Origin: Escherichia coli
Lineage (GTDB): Bacteria > Pseudomonadota > Gammaproteobacteria > Enterobacterales > Enterobacteriaceae
Strand: one strand, 5' to 3'
DNA: 64,000 nucleotides
Assembly: GCF_044324785.1 (NCBI RefSeq)
Contig: NZ_CP172127.1
Both the position numbers and the translations under genes were made by a program. How positions within the stretch are numbered: the stretch's first letter is position 1; each line of letters opens with the position of its first letter. Shown here piece after piece: positions 40,060 to 50,801 of the stretch. Below the pieces are notes generated by a model, which saw only the letters and a program-made list of their open reading frames with translations, was not told where the DNA came from and did no database searches.

Positions 40060-41019
40060 TCAGTTCACCGTCAGGCGCAGGGCAAGATCCTGCGGGTAGG
40101 GGTCAAAATAGTTCTGCGCCTGCAGGTAGCGATCCGGATACTCGGCCAGATAGTGCTTAAGCAGCGTCAGCGGCGCGAGGATCGGCAGCAGCCCGGCGCG
40201 ATAGTTGAGGATCACCTCCCGCAGCTCGCCGCGCTGGCGGCTGTTCAGCTGGTCGCGGAAATAACCCTGAATATGCATCAGCACGTTGGTGTGGTTTTTC
40301 CGAGAGGCGGGCCGCTTGAGGATCGCCATCAGCTTTTCGCGATAGACCTCGAAGAAAGCCTCCAGATCCTCCCATTCATGCAGCGAGGCGACGAAGGGGC
40401 CGATCTCGCGGTAGCCCGCCTGGTGGTGAGCCAGCAGCTGCAGCTTGTAGCGGCTGTGAAAGGCCAGCAGGCCGTGGCGGGTCAGGCCGCGGGCGCGCAG
40501 GGCGTTGAGTTCATGCAGGGCGAAGACGCGCTCGACAAAATTCTCCCGCAGCAGCGGATCGTGCAGCCGGCCATCCTCTTCCACCGGAAGCCACGGGTAG
40601 CGCGCCATCAGGGCGCCGGTAAACAGCCCCACGCCTTCCTTACGCCCGCGATTGCCTTTTTCATCATACAGCCGCACGCGCTCCATCCCGCAGATCGGCG
40701 ATTTGGCGCAGACGATAAAGCCCGACAGCTCGCCCAGGGTTGCCAGATGGGCGTTGGCGAAATCGGCCATCTTCTCCGTCACATCCTCGTGCGGGGCGTG
40801 GCTGAAGCGCATGCGGATCTCCCCGACCGGGGTCTGCACCAGCCGGAGCGCCGGGCGGGGAACGGGCAGGCCGATCGCCATCTCCGGGCAGACGGGCTTA
40901 AACGCCACCCACTGCGCGAGCTCATCCATCACAAAGCCCATACGCTTATGCCCGCCGTCGAATCGCACGGCTGAGCCGGTTAAACATCCGCTGATCCCAA
41001 TGACAGGTTGCGTGTTCAT
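40060..41019 (-). CDS. YbgA-family protein (DUF523 plus DUF1722)
   Basis: 319 aa; N-terminus MNTQPVIGISGCLTGSAVRFDGGHK… is typical of the family. Confidence 0.65.
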   Translation of the reverse strand: MNTQPVIGISGCLTGSAVRFDGGHKRMGFVMDELAQWVAFKPVCPEMAIGLPVPRPALRLVQTPVGEIRMRFSHAPHEDVTEKMADFANAHLATLGELSGFIVCAKSPICGMERVRLYDEKGNRGRKEGVGLFTGALMARYPWLPVEEDGRLHDPLLRENFVERVFALHELNALRARGLTRHGLLAFHSRYKLQLLAHHQAGYREIGPFVASLHEWEDLEAFFEVYREKLMAILKRPASRKNHTNVLMHIQGYFRDQLNSRQRGELREVILNYRAGLLPILAPLTLLKHYLAEYPDRYLQAQNYFDPYPQDLALRLTVN

Positions 41020-41567
41020 GGCGCTGTCCTCTCTTCTGCTGTGGTTCGGGTAAAGAAAAGGGTCACGGTGGCCACCGTAATGCCGAATTTCTTCATCTCG
41101 GTTTTGTTAAACAAATGGCTGCCGTCCTGCAGGAACATCCAGTCGTCAAAGTGCAGCAGCCACCGGCTGCCGCTGGCCTCGACGTTCATGCTGTAGCGCC
41201 AGTGAAAGGCATTGCCTGCCGCCTGGCCGCTGGCCACGCCTTCGATATCCCCGGCGGTGCCCTGATAATGGTTATCGCCGGTGCGGCGAATGCGCCACAC
41301 CCGCTGCTGTTTCTCGCCATCGTCATAGACAAAGCGCTCATGGAGCGTCAGGGTGTCGCCGACGACGTCGCCATCGATCGCTACATGGAAGCGGCGCAGC
41401 TGTTTACCGCGGCGATCCTGCACCATCCCCCACGCCTCGGTTCGACCCTGAAAATAGTGGAAGATGTCGAGGGCGGGCTGCTGCTGCCGGTACTCGGTGA
41501 CCTCGATGCTGCAGCCGGCGAGCATCAGCATCAGCAGCGCCAGGCCACGGGTCAGAATGCGTTTCAT
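41016..41567 (-). CDS. Putative lipoprotein (DUF3833-like)
   Basis: 183 aa; lipobox LAGCS after signal peptide; translationally coupled to the YbgA-family gene. Confidence 0.5.
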   Translation of the reverse strand: MKRILTRGLALLMLMLAGCSIEVTEYRQQQPALDIFHYFQGRTEAWGMVQDRRGKQLRRFHVAIDGDVVGDTLTLHERFVYDDGEKQQRVWRIRRTGDNHYQGTAGDIEGVASGQAAGNAFHWRYSMNVEASGSRWLLHFDDWMFLQDGSHLFNKTEMKKFGITVATVTLFFTRTTAEERTAP

Positions 41568-41606
41568 GGTGTACCTCCGATCAACTGCTGACGCAGTTCG
41601 GGATAA

Positions 41607-43691
41607 GTGGTGCGCGGATCGAGCCAGAACTCGCTGACGCTGAGCGCAGGAGATGTGACCAACAGCGGCCGGATTCAGGGGCAGAACATTACTCTGGATG
41701 CCAGCAGCCTGACCAGCAGCGGTGCTGTTCAGAGTGCGCTGGAGTTGGCTCTGACCCTGAGTGGCGATGTTATTGCTGCCACCGGCAGAAAAATTACCGC
41801 CCTGGGCGATGCCCGCCTTACCGGGAAAGTGCTGGGTAACCAGGGATTAATCAGCGCGAAGACGCTGGAAGTGAATGGTGATTCGCTCAGCAACGGTGGC
41901 GAAATCAGTGGTGTTAACAGCCTGAATGTGACACTCAGTGGTAATCTGCAACAGCACGGTAAAATGCTGACAGGCGGTACATTAAACGTCAACGCCAGAG
42001 ACATCAGCAATAGTGGGCAGCTTCAGGGGGCGGATAACCGAATCACCGCCAGTTCGCTGACCAACTCAGGTCGTGTGCAGGGCGACAGCGGGCTGACTCT
42101 TACATTGCTGAATGCCCTGACCAACCAGACCAGCGGTGTGCTTCTCAGTCAGAACGTATCAGCGCTTTCTGCACCTGTGCTGACTAATGACGGCACCATT
42201 CAGGGCAACGGTAAAACCACGCTCAGCGCGGCAACGCAGGCCCACAACAGTGGCAAGATTCTTTCCGGCGGTGAGCTGACGTTCACCACGCCGGACTACA
42301 GTGGCAGTGGCTGGCTACAGGCCACTGACCTGCTGCTGAACGTGGCGAAGCTTGCCGGTAATGGCACTGTGATGGCGGCGAATCAGGCAACGCTCACAGG
42401 TAACAGTCTGACCAACCGTGGCCTGTTCCAGGCTGCACAACTGAACGTCAACACGCAGACCATCACCAACAGCGGCACGCTGCTGGGTAATCAGGGCCTG
42501 ACAATAAAAGGGAACAGCCTGAACAACGCCGGCGGGAAGGTGTTCAGCGGCGGTGATATGCTTGCTGAAATGGTCTCGCTCAGCGGCGCGGGCCAGCTGG
42601 TTACACTCGGTAACCTGACGCTGAAGCTCACACGTGGTTTGACCGCACAGGGCGTTATCGCCGCGAATAAACAACTCTCCGTCAGCAGCCAGGGTGATAT
42701 TACCAATGGCGCCACATTGCAGGGCAACGGTATCACGCTGAATGCTGCAGGCAGGCTGACCAACAATGGCCAGTTGACCGCCGGCAACGGCACCACGGCA
42801 CTGAGCGGCAGCGGGATTGCGATGAATGCCAGCGGCAGCCTGCAGGCAGGCGGGGACGTCAGCCTGACCAGCAGGGGAGATATCACTCTCGACGGTTTTA
42901 CCGGCACGACGGGTAGTCTGGTGTTAACGGTCGCCGGGGCAGTCATTAACACCGCACTGTTGTATGCGGGCAATAACCTCTCGCTGTTTGCCAGCACCAT
43001 CCGGAACCATCACGGCGATATGCTGGCGGGTTACAGCCTGGTGATGCAGAAAGATGTCAGTGGTGCCGCGAATGCTGAAGTGATTAATACCTCCGGGAAT
43101 ATCGAAACCACCCGCGGTGATATCACCATCAGAACCGGACATTTACTGAATCAGCGGGAGGGTATAAATGAGACAAAATCATACATTCCGGTTGAGAATG
43201 TCGCAGTACCTGATGGTGTAAATTCTGTTTCAGTCAGAGTGGGCGATTTAGGTGAAAATGGATGGGGATATTATGTGAAGTCCTGGAGCGGTACTGCCGG
43301 TGGTGGTTTTGAGGCATGGGCCGTTCCGACTGAAAAGGGAGCCACCCGGAAATTTCTGACTGGCACAACACGCGTCGATGTTGGTGCAACAGGGGGGGAT
43401 GCCAGAATTTCGGCCGGTAATAATCTGCTGATTGACGCGAACAAACTGGATAATACGGGAAGTCATCTTCTTGCCAGCGAGTTTGTCAGCCTGTCGGGTT
43501 CACAACTGAATAATCAGTCCTTCTTTGGCTATACACAGGATGAATACAATGTGTATCGCTATTACGGCAAACTGGCCATGATCCCCAACGACGGGCATCT
43601 GCAGTATGGAGATGCTTCTGCCGATGATCGCGTTACCTTTACTCTCTCCGGAGCTCCGGAATATGTCACCAGAGACACCGGTCAGGCGTAA
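41607..43691 (+). pseudogene. Internal fragment of a CdiA/FhaB-family two-partner-secretion exoprotein (beta-helical repeat region only)
   Basis: 694-aa frame with no credible start or TPS domain; repetitive motifs (…LTNSGRVQGDSGLTL…, …ITNSGTLLGNQGLTI…); the stop codon is contributed by the adjacent IS66-family end. Confidence 0.7.
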
Positions 43692-43758
43692 GCGTACAGC
43701 CTGAACCGTCTGGTCAGAATCTGACGAATTAGACAAAGTGGTGTCCACCAAATAAGTA

Positions 43759-44160
43759 GTGGGAACCAAAGTGTCAGATATGCAGAAAAATGTGACTCCC
43801 GGCAGGCGAAAAGGCTGCCCTAATTATCCTCCCGAATTTAAACAGCAGCTCGTTGCTGCCTCCTGTGAACCCGGGATATCCATCTCAAAACTTGCTCTTG
43901 AAAATGGCATTAACGCCAATCTGTTGTTCAAATGGCGACAACAATGGCGCGAGGGAAAGCTGCTATTACCTTCTTCAGAGAGCCCCCAGCTACTTCCTGT
44001 GACTCTCGATGCAGCTGCCGAACAGCCAGAATCGCTCGCAGAGGGCCCGGAAACCCTCAGTATCAGCTGTGAGGTAACGTTCCGGCACGGGACGCTCCGC
44101 TTCAATGGCAATGTCAGCGAAAAGCTCCTGACTCTGCTGATACAGGAACTGAAGCGATGA
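43759..44160 (+). CDS. IS66-family accessory protein TnpA (orfA)
   Basis: 133 aa; first of three overlapping IS66-type ORFs. Confidence 0.8.
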   Translation: MGTKVSDMQKNVTPGRRKGCPNYPPEFKQQLVAASCEPGISISKLALENGINANLLFKWRQQWREGKLLLPSSESPQLLPVTLDAAAEQPESLAEGPETLSISCEVTFRHGTLRFNGNVSEKLLTLLIQELKR

Positions 44161-44504
44161 TCCCGTTACCTTCCGGGACCAAAATTTGGCTGGTTGCCGG
44201 TATTACCGATATGAGAAATGGCTTCAACGGCCTGGCTGCGAAAGTACAGACGGCGCTGAAAGACGATCCCATGTCCGGCCATGTTTTCATTTTCCGGGGC
44301 CGCAGCGGCAGTCAGGTTAAACTGCTGTGGTCCACCGGTGACGGACTGTGCCTCCTGACCAAACGGCTGGAGCGTGGGCGCTTCGCCTGGCCGTCAGCCC
44401 GTGATGGCAAAGTGTTCCTTACACAGGCGCAGCTGGCGATGCTGCTGGAAGGTATCGACTGGCGACAGCCTAAGCGGCTGCTGACCTCCCTGACCATGCT
44501 GTAA
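44157..44504 (+). CDS. IS66-family TnpB (orfB)
   Basis: 115 aa; [28 protein letters not shown]… typical TnpB; 4-bp overlap with orfA. Confidence 0.85.
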
Positions 44505-44553
44505 ATCTCTTTATCCTGGTTGTCACAGAATAAGCCCGGTAAAATACGGGCTT

Positions 44554-46092
44554 ATGAACGACATCTCTTCTGACGACATCTTCCTGCTGAAACAGCGCCT
44601 GGCCGAACAGGAAGCGCTGATCCACGCCCTGCAGGAAAAGCTGAGCAACCGGGAGCGCGAAATAGACCATCTGCAGGCGCAGCTGGATAAACTCCGCCGG
44701 ATGAACTTCGGCAGTCGTTCCGAAAAAGTCTCCCGCCGTATCGCACACATGGAAGCCGATCTGAACCGGCTTCAGAAAGAGAGCGATACGCTGACTGGTA
44801 GGGTGTATGACCCGGCAGTACAGCGTCCGTTGCGTCAGACCCGCATCCGTAAGCCGTTCCCTGAATCACTACCCCGTGACGAAAAGCGACTGTTGCCTGC
44901 GGCGCCGTGCTGCCCGAACTGCGGCGGTTCACTGAGCTATCTGGGTGAGGATACCGCCGAACAGCTGGAGTTGATGCGTAGCGCCTTCCGGGTTATCCGG
45001 ACGGTACGGGAAAAACATGCCTGTACTCAGTGCGATGCCATCGTGCAGGCACCTGCACCTTCGCGGCCCATCGAGCGGGGTATCGCCGGACCGGAGCTGC
45101 TGGCCCGCGTGCTGACCTCGAAGTATGCAGAGCACACCCCGCTGTATCGCCAGTCAGAAATATACGGCCGGCAAGGTGTGGAGCTGAGCCGTTCACTGCT
45201 GTCGGGCTGGGTGGATGCATGCTGCCGGCTGCTGTCTCCGCTGGAAGAGGCGCTTCATGGCTATGTCATGACTGACGGCAAACTCCATGCCGATGATACC
45301 CCGGTCCAGGTACTGCTGCCGGGTAATAAGAAGACGAAGACCGGGCGGTTGTGGGCGTATGTTCGTGATGACCGCAATGCCGGGTCAGCGTTGGCACCTG
45401 CAGTGTGGTTCGCTTACAGCCCGGACAGAAAAGGCATCCATCCGCAGACTCATCTTGCTTGCTTCAGCGGTGTGCTGCAAGCGGATGCGTACGCCGGGTT
45501 CAACGAGCTGTATCGCAATGGTGGGATAACGGAAGCTGCCTGCTGGGCTCATGCCCGCCGAAAGATCCACGATGTGCACGTCCGCATCCCGTCAGCACTG
45601 ACGGAAGAAGCCCTGGAGCAGATCGGTCAGTTGTACGCCATAGAGGCGGATATAAGGGGAATGCCGGCAGAGCAGCGGCTTGCTGAACGTCAGCGAAAAA
45701 CGAAACCGCTGTTGAAATCCCTGGAAAGCTGGTTGCGTGAAAAGATGAAGACCCTGTCGCGACACTCAGAGTTGGCGAAGGCGTTCGCGTACGCACTTAA
45801 CCAGTGGCCGGCACTGACGTACTATGCGAACGATGGCTGGGTGGAAATCGACAACAACATCGCTGAAAATGCCCTGCGGGCGGTAAGTCTGGGTCGTAAA
45901 AACTTCCTGTTCTTCGGCTCTGGCCATGGTGGTGAGCGGGGAGCGCTACTGTACAGCCTGATAGGGACGTGCAAACTGAATGACGTGGATCCAGAAAGCT
46001 ACCTTCGCCATGTGCTTGGCGTCATAGCAGACTGGCCGGTCAACCGGGTCAGCGAACTGCTTCCGTGGCGCATAGCACTGCCAGCTGAATAA
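44554..46092 (+). CDS. IS66-family transposase (orfC)
   Basis: 512 aa; N-terminal leucine-zipper-like region, CxxC…CxxC zinc motif (CPNCGG…CTQCD) and DDE core. Confidence 0.9.
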
Positions 46093-46129
46093 CACATCCC
46101 CGTCAATACGGCCCTCGCTGTACGCTTAC

Positions 46130-46892
46130 TAATCCGCCGTGAATATAAATCAACAACGAGTGCGAGATAACACCATTTGTCCTGCAGGCGAATAAAACTG
46201 ATGTTGCCGCACCAGACGCGGTTTGGTGCGGCGGGGTGAAATTGCCGGTTCAGTAAATTTGGCAATGGCGGACTTTTGTCTTCGTTTACCCGGTAGTGAT
46301 GTTTAACTGGCTGTCGACTTGTCAGCCCGCATTCCCGCATCAGTCGTCGTGCCAGCCACCGGCCTGCATCAACGCCACTATGGCGCAACATCTGACTGAT
46401 TGCCCGGCTACCGACTGCGCCACGACTGAGAGCATGGACAGCCCTCACCCGACTTCGTAATTCAATTCTTTGCACATTAACAGGACGCTTCACCTGCGCG
46501 TAATAAATGCTACGGTGAATACCGAATAAATGACAAAGAACCCGCACTGGCCACTTTGCTTTCAGCCGTGTGATTAGCGCGACAGTTTCCCCGGGGATTT
46601 CGCTCATCAGCACGGCAGCCTGCTTTAGTATTTCTTTTTCCATCTCAGGGCGCTTTATCTGCGCTTTAAGCTGCTTAATTTAGCGTTGTTCAGGAGTAAT
46701 AGCATTACCAGCGGGCTCAATACCCTGAAGTTCCTGCTTATACAACTGTATCCATTTACGCAAATGGTCAGGGTTGAGCTCGAGTGCCAGCGCGACTTCT
46801 CTGACATCACGCTGGTATTTAACCACCTGTTCGATAGCTTCAAGCTTGAACTCCGGGGAAAAGGTACGTTTAGTCCGACGAGTTTTGATCAT
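46130..46892 (-). pseudogene. IS3-family element remnant: orfA (46680..46892) plus 5' portion of orfB (46130..46643), truncated by the IS66-family insertion
   Basis: The orfB frame runs into the IS66 terminal repeat, where the track ORF 45999..46643 finds its stop. Confidence 0.7.
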
Positions 46893-47031
46893 GCATCACC
46901 TCATTTTCACTTTTTAACATTAACAGTGAAAATGAGGTGTCCTGAATTACCGATCCACTACACAGAGAGTGACCAAAGGATAACGTGTCCTGAGTTTCCC
47001 TATTATAGAGAACTGTTCAGGGAGTCTGACA

Positions 47032-47304
47032 TCAAGAGTGCAGTAGCCTTTTTAATATTTCATTCTCCATTTCAATGCGTTGTAGCTTTTTCCTCAGCTC
47101 ACGTATTTCGATTTGTTCTGGTGTCATCGGAGAGGCTTTTAGTGTTTTGCCCTGACGCTCATCACGCAGTTGTTTGACCCATCTTGTCATTGTGGAAAGG
47201 CCGATATCCATAGCTTTGGCGGCATCTGCCACCGTATAGTTCTGGTCAACAACCAGTTGGGCGGATTAGCGTTTAAACTCTGCGCTAAAATTTCTTTTTT
47301 TCAT
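47032..47304 (-). pseudogene. IS911 orfA remnant carrying a nonsense codon
   Basis: Minus strand reads [32 protein letters not shown]…; TAA replaces the expected GAA at codon 13; the run of A before G is one A shorter than the A6G frameshift motif; IS911-like terminus at about 47376. Confidence 0.7.
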
Positions 47305-47376
47305 TAGGGCACCAGTCTTGTTCTGAGGTGAGCATATCACCTCTGTTCAGGTGACCAAATTCAGTGTGCCATTTCA

Positions 47377-47560
47377 GTCTGTAATGCGCTGTGTGAAAAA
47401 GCTCACTGACAGTCTGAGTATTTGTCTGCAAAGGATGGAGGCCCGTCGAGGGTTCCTGAAAACCACTGGTGTGCTGGCGAATAAGCTGACAAGAATCATC
47501 TGGCGTGTTTTGAGCGATAGTATTGATTTTAATATGCAGAAGGCCGTTGTGATGAATTAA
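47377..47560 (+). pseudogene. Possible C-terminal fragment of an IS110-family transposase
   Basis: …TTGVLANKLTRIIWRVL… resembles IS110-family C-termini; only about 60 codons. Confidence 0.35.
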
Positions 47561-47982
47561 ATAAAAACAGTAAGTTATAGAAAATATTTTTAACTGAGTT
47601 TACATTCACTGATGAGATAACGGCTACCGCCCCTGTAACAGTCTGAAGTTGACCTGGGTAATCAAATACCGGTGTAGTGATTAGGAAACAGGGCCCGGAT
47701 AACATCATGGCGCAGGTCATTGAACCTACTAACGACGCCGGATATATGGTCGCAAACCGCATCGAACCAGTACTTGCCTCATCTGGGACGTCCATATATG
47801 CTCAACAAAAGAGAGCGTTCAGAATCCTAGCCTCACATCATACCTGAAACCGCGTCCCGACCATAGATGATTTTATCGCCGGTTTTTTATGACAATTGTT
47901 ATATTTCCGTAACAATCTTTCCGTAGACTCACGTGCATAAAAATGATTCCCCTTGAAATCGATTTTTTGAAAGGAAACCGCA

Positions 47983-50011: not shown

Positions 50012-50091
50012 ATGGTAAAGTCCTGTCAGTCCGCGCGCTGGCTTCCTTCAACGCTTTGTCGTAATTTTTGTCAGTCTGCTCGTAGTCTGGA

Positions 50092-50455
50092 ATGCCCGGA
50101 ATTCCTCAACGCTATGCCACTGTTCAGGCGCGGTGTGATGAGAGGGGCGTCGCTGGGTTATGCCTTTCCGGGCACGATTCTGGCGATTGGTTTTCTGACT
50201 CCCTAAATGACCGCTGGCTGTCGGAACTACTGGATTACAGGGGGTTACCTTTAATGTCTGTCGGTGTCCTGTTGGTGATTTGCTGTACGATGCGATTTCA
50301 GGCAATAGCCATCGGCGCACTTGATGTCCGGCTGGGACGTATACCAGAGTCACTGGAACAAGCCTCACGTCTGCTGGGAGAAAATGGTACAGGAACTTTT
50401 GTTCGGGTTCACTTTCCTGTGTTGCTCTGGTGAGCAGTGCCCTGCTGGTTTTCAC
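50092..50455 (+). pseudogene. Fragments of an ABC-transporter permease (EAA-loop region), frameshifted
   Basis: …RIPESLEQASRLLGENGTGTFVRVHFPVLL… and …GASLGYAFPGTILAIGF… in different frames without a credible start. Confidence 0.5.
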
Positions 50456-50801
50456 TGATGCGATGAAAGAACTGCCAGTAACACTTCTTTATTCCGAATC
50501 GCTCTTCCGGACGATTAAGTATTGTTCATGGTGGCCGGAGAATGGTTTTCGAACCATAGATGAAGCCAGAAGTTGGTTAAGCAAGTTCACGCAATGGTAC
50601 AACCTGGAACACAAGCACAGCGGTATTAAGTATGTTACTCCGGATGAACGCCATCGCGGAATTGATGCACAAATACTGGAAGCCAGAAAAAAAGTTTATC
50701 GCGAAGCTCGCAAGCGTCATCCTGAGCGCTGGAGCAAACAGTTGCGTGACTGGGAACTCATTCAGGCAGTTTATCTGAATCCAGAAAAAGAAGCGACATA
50801 A
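50430..50801 (+). pseudogene. C-terminal fragment of an integrase-core (rve-type) transposase
   Basis: …WYNLEHKHSGIKYVTPDERHRG… resembles transposase C-termini; the reading frame continues from the permease fragment with no start. Confidence 0.45.

Follow-up and report, generated by a model that had tools for sequence, protein, structure and literature searches.

ISEc8 was first described in E. coli O157:H7 (ISfinder), and by ISfinder convention two copies are assigned to the same IS at a threshold of roughly 95% identity. ISKpn37 is annotated on plasmids of Klebsiella and Raoultella. Members of the IS1111 family (IS110 superfamily), such as ISEc11 and the IS4321/IS5075 elements that target Tn21 ends, are RNA-guided by a seekRNA of their 3' non-coding region. 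Their subterminal repeats are accompanied by extensions of 7 nt on the left and 3 nt on the right, and the target is not duplicated (PMC11187229). For ISEc21, the target reported is a site inside IS3-family transposase genes and not the repeats of these elements.

Pieces related to ISEc8, ISKpn37 and the IS1111 family were found in the window, which is the whole stretch of E. coli DNA analyzed here (64,000 nucleotides of contig NZ_CP172127.1). The block they form in a genomic island is an ordinary scar consisting of a structurally intact ISEc8 and three truncated elements. A first-pass annotation had listed an IS66-family, an IS3-family, an IS911 and an IS110-like piece, and we confirmed all four, in this order and at essentially the same coordinates, with sequence identities far above chance. 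RefSeq already annotates transposase pseudogenes here. Scars of this type are commonplace in islands of E. coli, and the finding as originally submitted carries little weight.

Composition of the IS block

The following features were located.

41606-43687, plus strand: internal cdiA fragment, left flank of ISEc8 (nt 2614-4694 of the 9471-nt gene)
43688-46129, plus strand: ISEc8 (IS66 family), 2442 bp, structurally intact (Pfam, RefSeq names, ends, length)
43780-44160, plus strand: tnpA of ISEc8 (Pfam HTH_Tnp_1)
44157-44504, plus strand: tnpB of ISEc8 (Pfam TnpB_IS66, 1e-38)
44554-46092, plus strand: tnpC of ISEc8 (Pfam DDE_Tnp_IS66, 3e-106; zf-IS66, LZ_Tnp_IS66, IS66_C)
46130-46962, minus strand: ISKpn37-like IS3-family element, nt 1-832 of 1253
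46963-47376, minus strand: IS911-like remnant, nt 1-415 of 1251
47377-47798, plus strand: last 422 nt (3' remnant) of an IS110-family element of the IS1111 type
47378-47560, plus strand: last 60 codons of its transposase (residues from 47378-47557)
47561-47784, plus strand: its 3' non-coding region, completely kept
47785-47798, plus strand: its right-end motif, the right subterminal repeat GGGACGTCCAT and the 3-nt extension ATA
47799-47810, plus strand: 12-nt stub TGCTCAACAAAA, similar to an IS3-family terminal inverted repeat (positions 6-17 of the repeat)

The left flank of ISEc8 is a piece of the contact-dependent inhibition toxin gene. It shares 98.1% identity with L007 10920-13000, which lies inside an annotated intact cdiA, it matches Pfam Fil_haemagg, and in RefSeq it is a pseudogene lacking N- and C-terminus. 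When we searched the window, we found neither a downstream part of cdiA nor further pieces of ISEc8, ISKpn37, IS911 or the IS1111-type element.

The description of the IS66-family element as intact was correct. In ISEc8 the genes tnpA, tnpB and tnpC follow each other with all three frames open, and an IS66-type DDE transposase is present. The same three genes are annotated as intact by RefSeq in strains ES1 and A65EC, the loci of which are 100% identical to the window. The window copy resembles the RefSeq-labelled ISEc8 of O157:H7 in length (2442 bp), gene order, IS66 Pfam domains and GTAAGCG termini, and it differs from two O157:H7 copies by 17-19 mismatches (99.2-99.3% identity). Its ends read GTAAGCGTACAGC...GCTGTACGCTTAC and the terminal inverted repeats begin with GTAAGCGTACAGC (GTAAGCG) at both sides. 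However, it carries six private substitutions. Four of these are non-synonymous, the changes being D89G, Q65H, G181E and M255L, and thus "intact" refers to open reading frames and activity is only putative. The copy may still be mobile.

Unlike the O157:H7 copies, the window copy is not flanked by an 8-bp target-site duplication, which had been pointed out before and held when the exact ends were compared (GGTCAGGC vs TAATCCGC). The duplication length for ISEc8 was set empirically from the two O157:H7 control copies, which carry perfect 8-bp duplications (GTTCGGCG/GTTCGGCG and AGTAGCTC/AGTAGCTC). Since these controls, which are of the identical length (2442 bp), do carry duplications, their lack in the window copy is real. 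We used the 8-bp duplication as a mark of simple insertion and not as a mark of IS66-family membership.

The adjoining IS3-family piece shares 97.2% identity with an ISKpn37-annotated reference (L004 1501-2753, 1253 bp). Like ISKpn37, it carries a TG-initiated IRL (TGTAGTGGATCGG...), nt 1-832 and the orfA/orfB organization, and Pfam detected HTH_Tnp_1 in orfA as well as HTH_21 and a partial rve domain in orfB. As proposed from the sequence, its orfB is truncated by the IS66-family element: the right end of ISEc8 cuts it within the rve domain, and the truncated IS3-family element has lost its own right end together with the DDE core. Unlike ISKpn37, the piece lacks the 3' 421 nt, its orfA involves a stop codon at E71 (46680-46682), and frame analysis showed that its two frames are fused by an indel within the frameshift region.

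The IRL of the ISKpn37-like element in turn cuts the next piece, which had been taken for an IS911 remnant. Its remnant nature, orientation and truncation were confirmed, but the identity to the RefSeq-labelled IS911 reference L010 is only 93.7% over 415 nt with one gap. Since this value is below the convention of about 95%, we call the remnant IS911-like and not IS911 itself. It is nearer to IS911 than to ISEc52 (about 89% identical). With IS911 it shares the IRL (TGAAATGGCACACTG...), orfA and the position of the frameshift site, and it is colinear from nt 1 to nt 415 with that single gap. It differs from IS911 in that it ends at nt 415, carries a stop codon at codon 13 of orfA (GAA to TAA, E13, 47266-47268) and has a slippery site that reads A5G instead of A6G (ATTAAAAAAGG to ATTAAAAAGG, 47047-47053). 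The stop codon and the shortened site had both been noted by the first-pass annotation.

For the last piece, a possible IS110-type C-terminal fragment had been suggested. Here, the 60 residues encoded at 47378-47557 matched the C-terminus of a plasmid-borne transposase from Klebsiella aerogenes, annotated as IS110 family, in tblastn (85% identity, E = 8e-26). The piece does not end with the coding sequence at 47560, as had been assumed, but extends to 47798, about 240 nt further. At the DNA level, 93% identity to L009 was found over 47377-47805, but the last 7 nt are already target flank and the element's own right end is 47798. In L009, the full K. aerogenes element occupies 1573-2921. On the left, the IRL of the IS911-like piece truncates the window remnant, whose own left end is therefore missing here. 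The NCBIfam profile transpos_IS110 gave E = 0.004, far below cutoff, at profile positions 304-340 of 343. Pfam did not return any match in the IS110-like reading frame because the kept 60 residues lie after both family domains (DEDD_Tnp_IS110 and Transposase_20), which are present in the full-length 85%-identical relative. Judged from its sequence features, the IS110-family piece is of the IS1111 type.

Spread of the block and variation at the ISEc8 termini

A genome search indicated that the block is common to 40-41 of 5,426 complete E. coli genomes with the same junctions, and the junction coordinates are identical in L001, L002, L003 and L008. It is part of a mobile island module, which consists of the IS scar, phoX, an outer-membrane protein gene and a phosphoethanolamine transferase gene. 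In the window, this module lies in the tRNA-Sec (selC) island of an ES1/ST38-like E. coli. The carriers represent at least three chromosomal contexts (the selC island, a position beside an S6 peptidase gene and a position near yjgR-lptG). As 41 of the 5,426 genomes share the very same junctions in differing contexts, each junction is a single old event, which was carried along with the phoX island module. Accordingly, the block is no local hotspot, and the previous term hotspot does not stand for repeated local insertion in the window genome.

The second part of that proposal, a breakpoint for past deletions, was borne out by strain comparison. Among the genomes sharing the right-hand scar, the left flank of ISEc8 exists in three forms, and in the window lineage there is an extra 37-bp deletion, which starts exactly at the right terminus of ISEc8. 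The variable left flank and this flush deletion together support the breakpoint reading. In strain Ch1, ISEc8 is flanked by nt 983-1253 of ISKpn37 on its left side and by nt 1-870 on its right side; 112 bp are missing and there is no duplication. Since both halves of the host are present there, ISEc8 is truly nested in the ISKpn37-like element. Strain AR_0085 has a tnpC frameshift in common with Ch1 but a different left flank, and thus the left flank of ISEc8 has been replaced at least twice. GF60 carries the cdiA flank and still keeps the 37 bp, so that the 37-bp deletion came last.

Serial nesting of the whole block had also been proposed, but true nesting is seen only where ISEc8 has entered the ISKpn37-like element. 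At the other two junctions, the elements abut on one side. In Ch1, the missing half of the IS911-like element is absent beyond the right end of the ISKpn37-like element, and we did not find any genome keeping the other half for the IS911-like/IS1111-type or the ISKpn37-like/IS911-like junction. At these two junctions, deletion-fusion therefore looks the same as insertion followed by deletion. Nor did we find a form in which an intact 8-bp duplication flanks ISEc8 within the ISKpn37-like element, and the most complete form is that of Ch1 with its 112-bp loss. The scar has no cellular function and its biological effect is that of a recombination and deletion breakpoint. It documents the ISEc8 termini as recurrent rearrangement breakpoints, which join the phoX-bearing island module to different neighbors.

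The IS1111-type element and its putative target

No full-length copy of the IS1111-type element was found in the 5,426 E. coli genomes, and its ends were looked for in eight relatives. Sources of the element include K. aerogenes YD-K10 and Rahnella ZF458. All six left ends found follow TGTAG, and all six right ends found are followed by TGG and IS3-family repeat sequence, which represents at least five different sequence types. Thus, every relative with a readable end is located 5 nt inside an IS3-family terminal inverted repeat, and the target TGTAG^TGG is split without duplication. The left end of the relatives consists of TGATGTG (7-nt extension) followed by ATGGACGCCC. In the window, 11 of the 12 positions of the stub TGCTCAACAAAA agree with the sequence that follows the right end in the relatives L012 and L013, and the sequences diverge beyond. 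The stub probably represents a truncated IS3-family repeat (TGTAG^TGGTCAACAAAA...) rather than a look-alike site.

When compared with the IS1111 family, a number of similarities become apparent. The window remnant has a non-coding region downstream of its transposase gene, followed by an 11-nt subterminal repeat and a 3-nt right extension, and the relatives have the 7-nt left extension. There is no target duplication, and insertion is strictly site-specific and directed at the end of another mobile element. A putative seekRNA may be encoded in the 3' non-coding region, where guide-like segments match both target strands and change along with the target in L014; GTTGACC and ATATGGTC are the candidate guide segments of the element. 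An Rfam scan of 41-52 kb (E <= 1) did not yield any match, and a single-sequence fold of the 3' non-coding region was no more stable than shuffled sequences (z = +1.38). RNAalifold gave one compensatory pair and little covariation because the homologues are too similar, and hence we do not claim a structure for this region.

The difference from the known IS1111-family elements concerns the target, which is here the tip of IS3-family inverted repeats (TGTAG^TGG...). In the literature and its supplements, no IS110/IS1111 element aimed at IS3-family inverted repeats was found and only ISEc21 was encountered; ISfinder was outside this scope and novelty is unproven. We lean slightly towards the view that the remnant belongs to an apparently unnamed IS1111-type element, the guide RNA of which would be directed at the outermost nucleotides of the inverted repeats of IS3-family elements (TGTAG^TGGTCAAC...). 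Such an element would home into other IS and decapitate them, and the window would retain its orphaned 3' guide region. If this is true, homing to IS3 ends would explain why the IS1111-type remnant is buried among IS3-family debris, and the block would illustrate that some IS-in-IS nesting is programmed and not accidental. The pairing of an IS1111-type element with IS3 ends would also add a natural guide-target pair to those of the IS110/IS1111 recombinases, which are in development as genome-editing tools.

Order of events and alternative explanations

The block is best explained as an old composite IS scar, which was inherited as one unit after layered insertions and subsequent deletions flush with IS termini (probability about 85%). 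The order of events, which we rebuilt from one-sided junctions, would be as follows. As the oldest step, the IS1111-type element may have inserted 5 nt inside an IS3-family terminal inverted repeat by RNA-guided site-specific recombination, and of this host 12 nt would remain. An IS911-like element would then have entered the IS1111-type transposase gene, followed by insertion of the ISKpn37-like element into nt 415 of the IS911-like element and of ISEc8 into orfB of the ISKpn37-like element. From each older element, the far half would subsequently have been lost by deletions or rearrangements beginning exactly at IS termini, and so would both copies of the target duplication of ISEc8. In the window lineage, the left end of ISEc8 would have been joined to mid-cdiA and a further 37 bp would have been lost at its right end. 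Presumably, these flush deletions go back to the transposase (adjacent deletion) and not to another route.

Alternatively, ISEc8 might be a hybrid: a copy in cdiA and another in the ISKpn37-like element would have undergone homologous recombination, and the intervening DNA would have been lost or inverted. The lack of a duplication and the two unrelated flanks are consistent with this scenario, related genomes are rich in ISEc8 (in GF60, nine places match the ISEc8 core), and the copies of the window and of GF60 differ only between IS positions 358 and 1629. However, the predicted reciprocal junction (right end of ISEc8, then GGTCAGGC and downstream cdiA) is present in none of the 5,426 complete genomes, and A65EC has the identical locus without a second ISEc8. 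Moreover, the six differences are private to the lineage and correspond to none of the other ISEc8 alleles sampled, and recombination within the IS cannot yield losses of 37 bp and 112 bp starting exactly at IS termini. Thus, we consider the hybrid origin unlikely. An active hotspot with several independent recent insertions in the window genome is far less probable still. Four to five IS layers within 4.1 kb would fit such activity, and IS66-family and IS3-family pieces adjoin at other loci, too. This scenario is at variance with junctions that are nucleotide-identical in 41 genomes of different lineages and chromosomal positions, and truncation as well as nonsense or frameshift mutations are seen in three of the four elements. 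One layer may also be accounted for by sequence-programmed targeting of IS3-family ends and not by local preference.

Gene conversion from a common ISEc8 allele was considered as source of the six substitutions and was rejected, since the allele occurs in no other genome. Together with the 37-bp deletion, these substitutions define the ES1/A65EC/ST38 form of the block and can serve as lineage marker.

Composition of the insertion sequence block

Pfam, RefSeq labels and alignments to reference elements recovered all elements that had been named in the first-pass annotation of this region. All parts of the block belong to well-known IS families, and the RefSeq annotation already lists one intact ISEc8 together with transposase pseudogenes. 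The sole candidate novelty is the target specificity of an IS1111-type element. The mapped pieces and the tRNA gene of the surrounding island are as follows:

43688-46129, plus strand: ISEc8 (IS66 family), 2442 bp, three open genes
46962 down to 46130, minus strand: ISKpn37-like IS3-family piece, nt 1-832 of a 1253-bp element, 97.2% identity
47376 down to 46963, minus strand: IS911-like piece, nt 1-415 of an IS911-labelled copy, 93.7% identity, one gap
57010-57104: tRNA-Sec (selC)

The Pfam domains of ISEc8 are HTH_Tnp_1 for tnpA, TnpB_IS66 for tnpB and, for tnpC, DDE_Tnp_IS66 accompanied by the zinc-finger, leucine-zipper and C-terminal domains of IS66. In RefSeq, the transposase bears the label 'IS66-like element ISEc8 family', and tnpA, tnpB and tnpC are all free of pseudogene flags. 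However, six substitutions (44045, 44204, 44748, 44946, 45095, 45316) are private to the lineage of strains ES1, ST38 and A65EC and were seen in no genome outside it. Since four of them are non-synonymous (tnpA D89G; tnpC Q65H, G181E and M255L) and only two are silent (tnpB I16, tnpC G131), "intact" should be read as open frames, as judged from the sequence. These changes form a cluster within ISEc8; the 1 kb of cdiA (contact-dependent inhibition toxin gene) beside it is 100% identical to that of strain GF60.

The ISKpn37-like orfB ends within its rve domain at the right end of ISEc8, which bears out the proposed truncation of an IS3-family orfB by this element. Codon 71 of the corresponding orfA is a stop codon, and an indel joins this frame to that of orfB. 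The terminal repeats of the ISKpn37 reference (RefSeq name) match, and it carries a GAAC duplication. For the neighboring remnant, both the suggested orfA nonsense codon (codon 13, GAA to TAA, 47266-47268) and the shortened frameshift motif (A6G heptamer region to A5G through the single gap, 47047-47053) were found, but because of its 93.7% identity to IS911 the piece is better described as IS911-like than as IS911. ISEc52 is about 89% identical, so that IS911 is the nearer relative.

The reverse nesting was observed in E. coli Ecol_656 and about 6 similar genomes, where a full-length 1253-bp ISKpn37-like element (97.4% identity) lies inside an IS66-like tnpA (locus L006, 4749-6260). Elsewhere, IS66-family pieces likewise lie directly against IS911-like ones (the IS911-labelled reference L010; hits H99, H206), and debris of the IS66 and IS3 families tends to co-occur in E. 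coli.

Inheritance of the block and rearrangements at ISEc8

The window region is colinear and 100% identical with the chromosomes of ES1, ST38 and A65EC. Since tRNA-Sec is located at 57010-57104 and a tyrosine integrase gene adjoins it (ES1 annotation), the block lies inside a selC-associated genomic island. The island gene order is a xylA/carbohydrate porin/YbgA/DUF3833 module, a cdiA fragment, the IS block, phoX, an outer-membrane protein gene and a phosphoethanolamine transferase gene. The four genes of the first module (40060-41567 area) have about 60-65% G+C, which is atypical for E. coli DNA. The left edge of the cdiA fragment (41606) is an abrupt start at cdiA nt 2614 that immediately adjoins the DUF3833 gene, and no IS was found at this junction. 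Additional IS debris is present downstream of phoX (50058-50801), where the C-terminal part of another IS3-family orfB (Pfam rve_3) is joined to a partial iron ABC transporter permease gene; this orfB piece shares no DNA similarity with either the ISKpn37-like or the IS911-like piece.

The whole block was found in 40-41 of 5,426 complete E. coli genomes. BLAST against the reference elements placed the internal junctions at identical nucleotides in four loci from other genomes (L001, L002, L003, L008), and the right side is constant, with the ISKpn37-like, IS911-like and IS1111-type pieces followed by phoX and the genes beyond. Comparison of L002, L003 and L008 with the window right of 47983 indicated that phoX and the outer-membrane protein and phosphoethanolamine transferase genes co-travel with the IS scar, and the chromosomal context of this module varies (beside an S6 autotransporter peptidase gene in strain Ch1, near yjgR-lptG in strain AR_0085). 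The block is thus rare yet conserved. Because its junctions are shared across genomes, the "hotspot" of the first-pass annotation is wrong for this genome, and single old events travel with the island module. The observed arrangement is confirmed and its interpretation is supported after some refinement, in that the scar is inherited and its IS110-family remnant is of the IS1111 type.

The suggested deletion breakpoint is the right picture, as indicated by variable ISEc8 left flanks among block carriers and by a small loss flush with the ISEc8 end. ISEc8 inserted into the ISKpn37-like element. In Ch1, it lies between ISKpn37 nt 983-1253 (left) and nt 1-870 (right), with 112 bp and the duplication gone. 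On the left of ISEc8, AR_0085 has unrelated DNA beside a GTPase-family gene, and GF60 and the window have mid-cdiA sequence (nt 4694 of 9471). A 1-nt tnpC deletion is common to AR_0085 and Ch1 and absent from GF60 and the window; therefore, at least two independent events replaced the left flank. On the right, GF60 keeps 37 bp (ISKpn37 nt 833-869/870) that were lost from the window lineage, and this deletion begins exactly at the last ISEc8 base.

The termini of the window copy are GTAAGCGTACAGC...GCTGTACGCTTAC, and the 8 bases flanking it (GGTCAGGC and TAATCCGC) do not form a duplication. As positive control we used two ISEc8 copies from O157:H7 genomes, each 2442 bp long with 17-19 differences from the window copy, and both carry perfect 8-bp duplications (GTTCGGCG and AGTAGCTC). 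Thus, the ISEc8 boundaries in the window are exact and the missing duplication, which had been noticed before, is real. Transposase-mediated adjacent deletion yields deletions that start precisely at an IS terminus, and the terminus-flush losses may well have been made in this way. Alternatively, ISEc8 without duplication could be the product of recombination between two ISEc8 copies, but the reciprocal junction predicted by such an event was present in 0 of 5,426 genomes and A65EC does not carry a second ISEc8.

Identity and target specificity of the IS1111-type remnant

Pfam gave no match in the 60-69 residue reading frame of the presumed IS110-type C-terminal fragment, and the NCBIfam IS110-family model aligned weakly over its last 40 positions (E = 0.004). 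In tblastn, all 60 residues matched a transposase that is encoded on a Klebsiella aerogenes plasmid and annotated as IS110-family (85% identity, E = 8e-26), which upholds the family assignment. The full-length relative (345 residues) carries DEDD_Tnp_IS110 and Transposase_20, both upstream of residue 290, and this explains the Pfam miss. Its DNA (L009 1573-2921) is 93% identical to window 47377-47805, the final 7 nt being target flank and not element. The true right end is 47798 and not 47560 as first annotated, and the remnant keeps the complete 3' non-coding region without the transposase gene.

We compared the insertion sites of the relatives (L009 1573-2921, L012, L013, L014, L015, L016, L017, L018) with window 47561-47810. 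Directly before all six locatable left ends stands TGTAG, and the sequence ahead of this pentamer is unrelated. All six right ends continue with TGG and then the remainder of a terminal repeat of the IS3 family, either TGGTCAACAAAAACTGGCCAC and its variants or, once, an IRL, TGGCATAGTGAATTTGGCCACC; the repeats fall into at least five sequence types. From these TGTAG left and TGG right flanks, the insertion point of the element lies between nt 5 and nt 6 of the inverted repeats of IS3-family elements (TGTAG^TGG), and no duplication is formed. At its left end the element has a 7-nt extension followed by ATGGACGCCC; its right end consists of GGGGCGTCCAT followed by ATA. In the window, the right flank TGCTCAACAAAA (47799-47810) matches an IS3-family repeat at 11/12 positions before similarity ends, and probably represents what is left of a fifth, older IS3-family element upstream of phoX. 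In literature and supplement searches outside ISfinder, no description of an IS3-family-repeat target class was found.

In the IS1111 family, a non-coding region encodes a target-selecting seekRNA (PMC11187229), and relatives of the window element share with this family the end architecture and a long non-coding region downstream of the transposase gene (PMC11187229). The guide-like segments in the window are:

47648-47654: GTTGACC, antisense to GGTCAAC
47673-47679: TGTAGTG
47742-47751: ATATATGGTC

In the Scandinavium copy the target is TGGCATAG and the corresponding segments are CTGTGCC and ATATATGGCA, so that guide-like segments and target have changed in step. Rfam gave no match to the remnant region, and structure predictions of the non-coding region added little.

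Relatives of the remnant reside on plasmids of Klebsiella aerogenes, K. pneumoniae, Rahnella (two species), Scandinavium, Yersinia ruckeri, Raoultella terrigena and E. coli. No full-length copy was present in 5,426 complete E. coli genomes; its short derivatives have a wide distribution. One of about 233 bp, which matches both element ends, occurs on Klebsiella plasmids (L015 1501-1733, K. pneumoniae plasmid), and about 1,000 plasmid records match this two-ended derivative with 95-99% identity. Many E. coli F-type plasmids carry 157 bp from the 3' non-coding region at 88% identity, for example pUTI89 (NC_007941.1, 42410-42566).
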